Assembly: GCF_003790525.1 (NCBI RefSeq)
Contig: NZ_CP033635.1
Length of the DNA: 64,000 nucleotides
Source: Escherichia coli
GTDB taxonomy: Bacteria > Pseudomonadota > Gammaproteobacteria > Enterobacterales > Enterobacteriaceae
Strand: one strand, 5' to 3'
The notes below the pieces were generated by a model, which worked only from the letters and a program-made list of their open reading frames with translations, did not search any database and had not been told where the DNA came from. The position numbers were made by a program, and so were the translations under genes. This document shows, piece after piece, positions 11,102 to 12,114 of the stretch (within the stretch, counting starts at the first letter, position 1; every line of letters starts with the position of its first letter).

Positions 11102-11461
11102 ATGTTATTGAATTACAAAGTTGATCCTGATATACAGGATTTCCGGCTCTTGCATCCAGTGATAACTTTATATAGTCCTGCAAAGGCGAACTTCGTAAAA
11201 GTATACTTTTCTGTTGTAAGCATTGAGGTATCGAAAATGAGTGAGAATACCGGAAAATCCCATGAAAATAAAATGGTTATTATTGACTGCGGGGAATATG
11301 ATGAATACCTTCGTAACGCGTGGTTCCGAGGTTTTCGGGAAGGTTATGATATGGCGATGAAATTTGGATTAGGCTGCCAGCAATGTTATGAAACAGGTGA
11401 AAAAATAGCATGCGCAAGAGCTGAAGAATGCCGTAAAAAGATTAAGGTAATAAAACACTGA
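11102..11461 (+). CDS. Hypothetical small Cys-rich protein; probable true start at the internal Met (MSENTGKSH...)
   Basis: ORF only; no family recognised; several Cys residues (CGEYDEY...CQQCYETGEKIACARAEEC). Confidence 0.3.
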   Translation: MLLNYKVDPDIQDFRLLHPVITLYSPAKANFVKVYFSVVSIEVSKMSENTGKSHENKMVIIDCGEYDEYLRNAWFRGFREGYDMAMKFGLGCQQCYETGEKIACARAEECRKKIKVIKH

Positions 11462-11589
11462 AACGGGCTGTCTGATATTTCTGTGAGCTAAAAAGACACC
11501 GTAATACAGGTATCTCACAGTAACTGAAAGATATGCACATGCCGCCAGGGAAGATTAAGGGTAAGGGAGGATATCCCTTACCTGATTGA

Positions 11590-12114
11590 TTATGGGATGA
11601 TACCACAGGCAATTCTTGCACCACCGCCACCTAGAGGTTCAGGATGGTCATCATGATTATCACCTCCTGCGTGGAGCATTAGCGAACGGCCATCGAGCTC
11701 CTTTAATTCAGATAGTCTTGGCGCAAGCACCGGGTAGGTTGCTTTTCCGTCATGAGTGACATAAAGCGCAGGGAGATCACCCAGGTGGCCATCAGGAGAC
11801 CATGGACCGAGATGCTTCCCTGTTTTTTCCGGGTCAAAGTGACCACCTGCAGATAAAGCAGCGACAGTTTTTCCATCTTTCAGGGCAGGAGCACAACTTG
11901 CGTTTTCATGTACATGAAAACCATGAATGCCGGCGGGTAAGGAGTGAAGATCAGGGGTGAACAGCAGCCCGTAGGGTGTCTTCTGGATGGTTATTTTACC
12001 AATATTTCGCTCTTTTCCGTCACTATCAACAAGATTCATTGTTACATCTTTGGTGGCTGCATATCCACAGGATGATGTAGCCAGAATCACAAAGGCAATA
12101 AGTTTACGTTTCAT
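11590..12114 (-). CDS. sodC: Periplasmic Cu/Zn superoxide dismutase, divergent accessory paralog
   Basis: 174 aa with signal peptide; metal-ligand motifs [31 protein letters not shown]. Differs substantially from the K-12 SodC sequence as recalled. Confidence 0.85.

Follow-up and report, generated by a model that had tools for sequence, protein, structure and literature searches.

Why should an Escherichia coli chromosome hold a second, divergent gene for a periplasmic Cu,Zn superoxide dismutase (SOD) amid insertion sequences (ISs), and does the short cysteine-rich open reading frame (ORF) beside it have anything to do with it? Both questions are raised by a stretch of 64,000 nucleotides from contig NZ_CP033635.1 of E. 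coli assembly GCF_003790525.1 (hereafter the window), in which the extra sodC and the small ORF are neighbors (Table 1). The comparisons set out below make it very probable that the two constitute a mobile two-gene module of 1.1 kb, in which an accessory sodC of the SodC-F clade is joined by a conserved small gene.

The product of the window sodC is the RefSeq protein WP_000823671.1, annotated as sodC or 'superoxide dismutase family protein'. It matches the NCBIfam SodC profile NF007628 at full length (218.4 bits against a cut-off of 165, residues 1-173 covered), and the Pfam domain PF00080 is precomputed for its 99%-identical cluster (P0010). PHROG 1975, a phage-protein family described as 'superoxide dismutase precursor' and placed in the moron category, gives 298.6 bits, above the generic SodC model. 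Its best matches in the PDB are the Salmonella SodCI structures 1eqw and 6d52 (E=1e-64), followed by the SodCs of Haemophilus, Yersinia, Actinobacillus and Neisseria, with that of E. coli (1eso) ranking lower. The initial annotation had credited the protein with all the metal-ligand motifs, and an alignment with six other sequences (K-12 SodC, Gifsy-2 SodCI, Fels-1 SodCIII, the SodC of an Stx2a phage, a plasmid variant and a Klebsiella copy) bears this out: the copper ligands H67, H69, H92 and H148, the zinc ligands H92, H101, H110 and D113, with H92 bridging, the disulfide pair C74/C170 and the active-site arginine R167 are invariant in all seven. The roles of these residues follow from the established structures of Cu,Zn SODs and SOD1. 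The N-terminus, read by eye, consists of MKRK, a hydrophobic stretch and CGYA|A; it can be aligned to the signal peptides found in the other SodCs and reads as a typical Sec export signal.

Could this gene nonetheless be a divergent allele of the housekeeping sodC, or else a decaying passenger devoid of function? The gene does lie amid IS debris, with the distal part of its promoter region replaced, as would suit a passenger. However, its protein is only 56.6% identical to the true K-12 SodC (b1646, NC_000913.3), where an allele would be expected to exceed 95%, and the two differ by a one-residue indel in the GPWSPDGH loop; what they have in common is the family, the fold, the catalytic residues and the match to NF007628. 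The K-12 gene lies in the order ydhK-sodC-ydhF, whereas the window gene has an IS3-family element on one side and an ABC-transporter operon on the other. Furthermore, the K-12 housekeeping sodC is present at the DNA level in 5425 of 5426 complete E. coli genomes, and the window sodC is therefore an additional copy, co-existing with the core gene. The assertion of the initial annotation that this is not the K-12 enzyme thus agrees with what we found. As for decay, the ORF is intact with every catalytic residue in place, the allele is conserved at 99% identity or more in 125 of the 5426 genomes (~2%) and in at least five genomic contexts, and the gene has evolved under purifying selection (ratio of nonsynonymous to synonymous substitution rates, ω, of 0.09-0.12 against the Klebsiella and Kluyvera-like copies described below). 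We accordingly reject the housekeeping allele and hold this explanation as a whole to be highly unlikely.

Where, then, does the enzyme belong? At the protein level it is 91% identical to a copy from Klebsiella pneumoniae, 82% to a variant on E. coli plasmids, 80% to the SodC of the Stx2a phage and 71% to a metagenomic copy from a Kluyvera-like organism, as against 62% to Fels-1 SodCIII and 61% to Gifsy-2 SodCI. In a neighbor-joining tree it falls within the SodC-F clade, far from the core enzyme, with SodCI and SodCIII on separate branches. These comparisons support its classification as a horizontally acquired accessory enzyme of the O157 SodC-F clade. SodC-F1 and SodC-F2 of O157:H7, together with the Stx2a-phage sodC, form the closest characterized clade (80% protein and 76-78% nucleotide identity) and resemble the window enzyme in their length of 174-175 residues, the full set of ligands, a cysteine at the lipobox position and their occurrence as extra genes beside the core sodC. 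They differ in their settings: the phage genes are morons of lambdoid prophages, inserted between tail genes (gpI/K/L on one side, gpJ on the other), and have no small partner gene, whereas the window sodC lies on an IS-rich island at selC with a conserved one. The window gene also constitutes a discrete allele class, copies of which occur on IncF plasmids too; a sensitive search recovered one other class only, that of the O157-type prophage genes (571 records, 76-78% identity), and no intermediates between the two.

The initial annotation had likened the gene to horizontally acquired copies such as the phage-borne sodCI of Salmonella. The acquisition stands, as does a link to prophage SodC of the O157 kind, but the closer parallel does not. 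Salmonella SodCI (Gifsy-2) and SodCIII (Fels-1) are likewise horizontally acquired periplasmic Cu,Zn SODs and share PHROG 1975 with the window protein; the low identity and the separate branch in the tree nevertheless rule out a SodCI orthologue. A prophage location was likewise ruled out, as none of the genes within 10 kb is of phage origin and the neighbors are the IS3 element, the orphan ORF and the ABC transporter. The plasmid variant (P0012) merits separate description: its gene occupies positions 5001..5528 on E. coli plasmids of ~100 kb, was encountered in 252 blocks of the collection and lies beside an IS3 element, a NERD/UvrD helicase and a RelE/MqsA-type pair, on plasmids that bear ParAB and UmuC. 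These plasmids are a further vehicle for SodC-F-type genes outside prophages.

The extent of what travels with the sodC is revealed by the Klebsiella contig, which is 85% identical to the window over 1109 nt (blastn) and falls to 40-46% beyond both ends, its neighboring genes (a FecCD-type ABC transporter) being unrelated to those in the window. This block, which holds just the sodC, the small gene and their flanks, also differs in composition from its surroundings, with a GC content of 37-46% against 55-63% in the adjoining ABC-transporter genes, whose operon ends 95 nt upstream of sodC. Neither direct nor inverted terminal repeats were found at its two ends, which rules out an autonomous mobile element; the module therefore moved passively. 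Between the two convergent genes lies a GC-rich hairpin (GGGTAAGGGA-GGATA-TCCCTTACCT on the plus strand and its complement on the minus strand) that resembles a terminator on either strand, its T-runs being weak and its identification a consensus match only.

Five contexts of the module can be distinguished. First, it adjoins the ABC transporter on the selC island in the window and in E. coli GF60 from chicken meat, the two being 99.8% identical over 25 kb. Second, in strain O2-211 of avian pathogenic E. coli (APEC) its neighbor is HsdMS. Third, in strain SMS-3-5, which carries the exact window protein WP_000823671.1, it lies among IS elements near sitABCD and iutA. Fourth, in APEC 102026 (region 7259..12737 of the locus compared) the module abuts the dptFGH DNA-phosphorothioation restriction system. 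Fifth, IncF plasmids carry it in E. albertii and in E. coli from poultry. A remnant of the IS3 element borders the module on the same side in both APEC O2-211 and SMS-3-5, and in the window the IS-flanked accessory segment described in the initial annotation is indeed delimited by the IS3-family element to the left and an IS256-family transposase to the right. We propose that the module, having no transposition machinery of its own, would be shuffled by flanking IS elements and recombination among the selC island, other chromosomal islands and IncF plasmids, and that it may have spread mainly in poultry-associated E. coli.

Is the second member of the module a gene at all? The ORF can be read as 119 residues from an ATG at 11102 or as 74 residues from the ATG at 11237; gene callers split between the two, and RefSeq annotates the shorter form. 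Its shortness, the lack of a family, the disagreement over its start and the failure of a scan to find a consensus promoter might all be taken to mean that it is a chance frame in AT-rich intergenic DNA, or the site of a non-coding RNA. Against this, the comparison with the Klebsiella copy (81% amino acid identity) shows no indels over 225 nt at a synonymous divergence (dS) of 0.43, close to the 0.45 of sodC, and a dN/dS of 0.22 in the annotated frame as opposed to 1.0 and 0.58 in the other two. With the Kluyvera-like copy (54% amino acid identity) synonymous differences are saturated (proportion 0.91 per synonymous site, against 0.20 per nonsynonymous site), and the differences are distributed over the three codon positions as 15, 11 and 35. 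The low dN/dS and the bias toward third positions indicate that the 74-aa ORF is a real gene under purifying selection. A GAGG Shine-Dalgarno motif stands 8 nt upstream of the ATG at 11237, conservation is confined to the 74 residues, the N-terminal extension to 119 not being kept in relatives, and the region has no Rfam match, which tells against a non-coding RNA. On these sequence grounds a spurious ORF is essentially excluded.

The protein encoded by this gene is hydrophilic (GRAVY hydropathy score -0.75) and has no signal peptide. It has five cysteines in its 74 residues, of which C47, C50 and C65 are present in all three lineages that possess it and C59 in two; the conserved core reads EYD..R.AW.RGFREGY.MA..FGL.CQQC.ETGEK.A.ARA..C. 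An AlphaFold2 model (mean per-residue confidence, pLDDT, 70.5) has a disordered N-terminus followed by a hairpin of two helices (23-42 and 47-73), with the CQQC motif at the start of the second. The likeness to known proteins is generic only and goes no further than a helical hairpin of ~50 residues whose second helix opens with a CxxC. The initial annotation had described a Cys-rich ORF with no recognizable family, and our searches concur: there was no match in Pfam (even at E<=10), NCBIfam, PADLOC or the PDB (sequence and profile searches), the best PHROGs hit had E=0.19 and defined no family, no homologue was found in phage genomes, and a Foldseek comparison of the model with the AFDB50 folds had a best E of 0.33 with nothing interpretable. 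Neither a DNA-binding nor a metal-binding fold was recognized from the model and the Foldseek comparison.

The distribution of the small gene is exceptionally narrow. A family of three lineages, namely E. coli, Klebsiella and the Kluyvera-like organism, was all that emerged when 5.8 billion clusters were searched by word index and 1.84 billion representatives exhaustively by hidden Markov model (HMM); the HMM search contributed only one new relative, P0130, the one diverged copy of the small gene, found on the Kluyvera-like contig (208..4348) beside the 71%-identical sodC. Two other candidates, P0131 and P0132, were repetitive and were rejected as spurious, and no match was confirmed across 100,044 species-representative genomes. 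No member of the family is further than 1 kb from an accessory sodC. The E. coli and Klebsiella pairs are tail-to-tail with 128 nt between the genes, while the Kluyvera-like pair is head-to-head, its genes separated by 752 nt that include an IS3 remnant; since the orientation differs between lineages, the linkage to sodC has outlived a rearrangement. The Kluyvera-like module also adjoins a katG gene, which we considered and set aside as a functional link: the KatG is 90% identical to the core KatG of Kluyvera and has no signal peptide, and katG is thus most likely just the insertion site. The two products of the module have diverged in step, the small protein being 81% and 54% identical, and SodC 91% and 71%, to the Klebsiella and Kluyvera-like copies, respectively.

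These observations invite the thought that the 74-aa protein works together with the accessory SodC, for example as a cytoplasmic regulator or adaptor that senses thiols or metals through CQQC, or as a factor for copper, zinc or redox stress, the two together forming a minimal oxidative-stress cassette. That every family member in such large collections sits next to an accessory sodC, that this proximity survived a change of orientation, that the two proteins co-diverge and that CQQC and a third cysteine are invariant across the lineages would all fit. However, with only three lineages the linkage may go back to one ancestral event; the small protein has no signal peptide, whereas SodC reaches maturity in the periplasm, which makes a direct chaperone role unlikely; no such neighbor accompanies the SodC-F variants of prophages and plasmids, which are much commoner; and no fold for binding DNA or metal was recognized. 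Further, the small gene is disrupted by IS5, IS2 and other breakpoints at ~11300, 11366, 11387, 11413 and 11442, always with sodC kept; in APEC 102026, for instance, IS5 has clipped the 3' end of the ORF. An intact copy is missing in ~20 of the 125 E. coli carriers and in all six of the sodC plasmids. The small gene is hence dispensable for keeping sodC, and we regard a partnership as possible but rather doubtful.

The same dispensability, and the lack of a counterpart beside other accessory sodC variants, would favor an unrelated hitch-hiker, i.e. a remnant of the donor element tied to sodC by common descent only, with a function that has nothing to do with superoxide. Mobile DNA often carries small genes rich in AT, and the GC content here is 37-40%. 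Such a hitch-hiker would sit less easily with purifying selection maintained over saturating synonymous divergence, with a linkage kept after rearrangement and with a small gene never seen away from sodC. We think the chances of this explanation fall just short of even. The more specific notion that the 74-aa CQQC protein represents a new, very rare cytoplasmic family dedicated to the accessory periplasmic SodC, as a thiol or metal switch or as a stress co-factor, strikes us as unlikely, though worth stating: were it true, sodC would be no lone moron, and the 1.1 kb would make up a mobile anti-oxidant cassette complete in itself. In the reading that we favor, the convergent 74-aa gene of the module specifies a probably cytoplasmic small protein that has co-diverged with sodC. 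As an orphan micro-gene that is conserved and tied to so specific a genomic setting, it also lends itself well to testing.

What might the accessory enzyme confer on its host? The best guide is the work on SodC-F1 and SodC-F2 of O157:H7 (D'Orazio et al. 2008, PMC2569942), according to which SodC-F is dimeric, more active and more stable than the core enzyme, partly lipid-anchored through its lipobox cysteine, and expressed independently of RpoS and oxygen; it outlasts core SodC under heat, proteases and chelators and contributes to H2O2 resistance, while the core E. coli SodC is monomeric, RpoS-dependent and protease-sensitive. Of the O157 enzymes, SodC-F1 is the one for which the dimeric state, the high stability, the protease resistance and the RpoS-independent expression are known. 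Traits peculiar to SodCI include tethering to peptidoglycan and control by PhoPQ. SodCI of Salmonella is protease-resistant and tethered in the periplasm (bioRxiv 10.1101/274878), and an accessory robust SodC guards against the phagocyte burst (PMC2569942; bioRxiv 10.1101/274878). By analogy with these, the window SodC would be a Sec-exported, possibly partly lipid-anchored Cu,Zn SOD that adds to the universal housekeeping SodC and converts periplasmic superoxide into O2 and H2O2. It might, like its relatives, be dimeric, resistant to proteases and expressed outside stationary phase, and such a robust enzyme could aid survival under host-derived or environmental oxidative stress, with a possible benefit for fitness or virulence; the role in resistance to the oxidative burst suggested in the initial annotation would be one form of this.

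Several points weigh against this reading. First, although Cys16 shares an alignment column with the lipobox cysteine of SodC-F, the box reads A-T-S-S-C as against A-A-S-C, which places a threonine at the -3 position (TSSC; AASC in SodC-F) and leaves lipidation uncertain. Second, the distal upstream region of sodC (~-64 to -120), kept in the Klebsiella, Kluyvera-like, phage and plasmid copies, has been replaced in the island copy, and a scan found no convincing sigma-70 match upstream of the sodC start; the native promoter may therefore be truncated, and the gene may be driven by a weak promoter close by or by transcription running on from the ABC-transporter operon. Third, a literature search found no functional study and no expression or activity data for this allele. 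In that search the only mention of the APEC island sodC was in a 2025 paper, where WP_000823671 is labeled 'E. coli SodC2' in a supplementary alignment; SMS-3-5 had been remarked on in 2008 as having an additional sodC highly similar to sodC-F (PMC2569942). Fourth, the association with poultry comes from a sample of 60 of the carriers, taken evenly down the ranking, in which ~27-29 are from poultry and 10 from humans, a count that has no baseline and is suggestive only.

The window sodC is thus a non-prophage member of the SodC-F kind that is already present in the databases and has been briefly noted in the literature, and as such is an incremental addition. What the present analysis adds is modest: the definition of the 1.1-kb module, its IS- and plasmid-mediated spread in poultry-associated Escherichia, and a conserved orphan gene found only beside accessory sodC. 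Accessory SodCs nevertheless have an established role in the fitness and virulence of Salmonella, and probably one in enterohaemorrhagic E. coli too. The window allele represents a third, non-phage route by which E. coli comes by an accessory SodC, and the IncF plasmids, being conjugative, extend that route to E. albertii. The allele could reasonably be considered as a candidate marker, or a candidate fitness factor, of avian and extraintestinal E. coli.

Table 1. Positions of the sodC module and of the mobile-element features around it (numbering of the 64,000-nt window)
Feature	Coordinates	Strand	Remarks
IS3-family insertion sequence, left flank	9111..10384	-	two overlapping ORFs; annotated as programmed-frameshift transposase in GF60
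Two-gene module (small ORF, sodC and flanks)	11071..12178	.	homology block common with Klebsiella pneumoniae contig
Orphan 74-aa gene	11237..11461	+	RefSeq hypothetical protein WP_024210520.1
GC-rich hairpin, terminator-like on both strands	11559..11583	.	between the convergent genes; from scan
Accessory sodC	11590..12114	-	intact ORF; 174-aa periplasmic Cu,Zn superoxide dismutase precursor
IS256-family transposase, right side	25625..26833		IS flank of sodC segment
Tyrosine integrase, P4-type	55054..56238	-	integrase domain NF007246, E=1e-94
tRNA-SeC (selC)	56538..56632	-	ARAGORN

The wider setting of the module is apparent from the tRNA-SeC gene and the adjoining P4-type integrase, which together identify at least the first 56 kb of the window as an IS-rich mosaic island anchored at selC; the sodC module lies ~44 kb inside it. 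In strain GF60 the tkt1 gene lies ~17 kb upstream, and 'superoxide dismutase' was not found in what the search listing gives of the tkt1-island paper (PMC3349570). To the right of the IS3 element an unannotated segment of 169 bp (10430..10598) recurs at 100% identity in ~85 large plasmids from E. coli and Klebsiella, most of them conjugative and pAPEC-O2-ColV (NC_007675) among them, and is probably an IS or recombination scar common to islands and ColV-type plasmids. On the other side of the module, 12210..18293 (GC 55-63%) encodes the ABC transporter (binding protein, two permeases and ATPase) along with a divergent glycerophosphodiester phosphodiesterase and a ROK regulator, all unlike the sodC module in composition. 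An S6-family (SPATE-like) autotransporter of 1274 aa (21663..25487, plus strand; GF60 annotation) is found ~10 kb from sodC in the same IS-bounded segment.

Other parts of the island carry a varied cargo. An MgtC/SapB-family protein (30163..30876, minus strand) and a 201-aa ankyrin-repeat protein (43610..44215, minus strand) are unusual in E. coli, the weak matches of the latter to Legionella Ank effectors being due to the repeats only. Between them, 37099..43524 on the minus strand encodes a carbamate kinase, an FdrA-like acyl-CoA synthetase and a DUF1116/YlbE-type protein in a cluster like the allantoin-associated fdrA-ylbE-ylbF-ybcF, and an AllS/PunR-like LysR regulator is present at 44474..45532. 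Near the integrase end, a 500-aa phosphoethanolamine-transferase-like protein (51738..53240, plus strand) has weak similarity, below all cut-offs, to CptA, EptA and MCR. At the opposite end of the window, next to IS1414, a cluster on the minus strand (3032..6229) combines a YaiO beta-barrel, an acetyltransferase, a GT2 glycosyltransferase and a PIG-L deacetylase in a putative set for the modification of surface polysaccharides.

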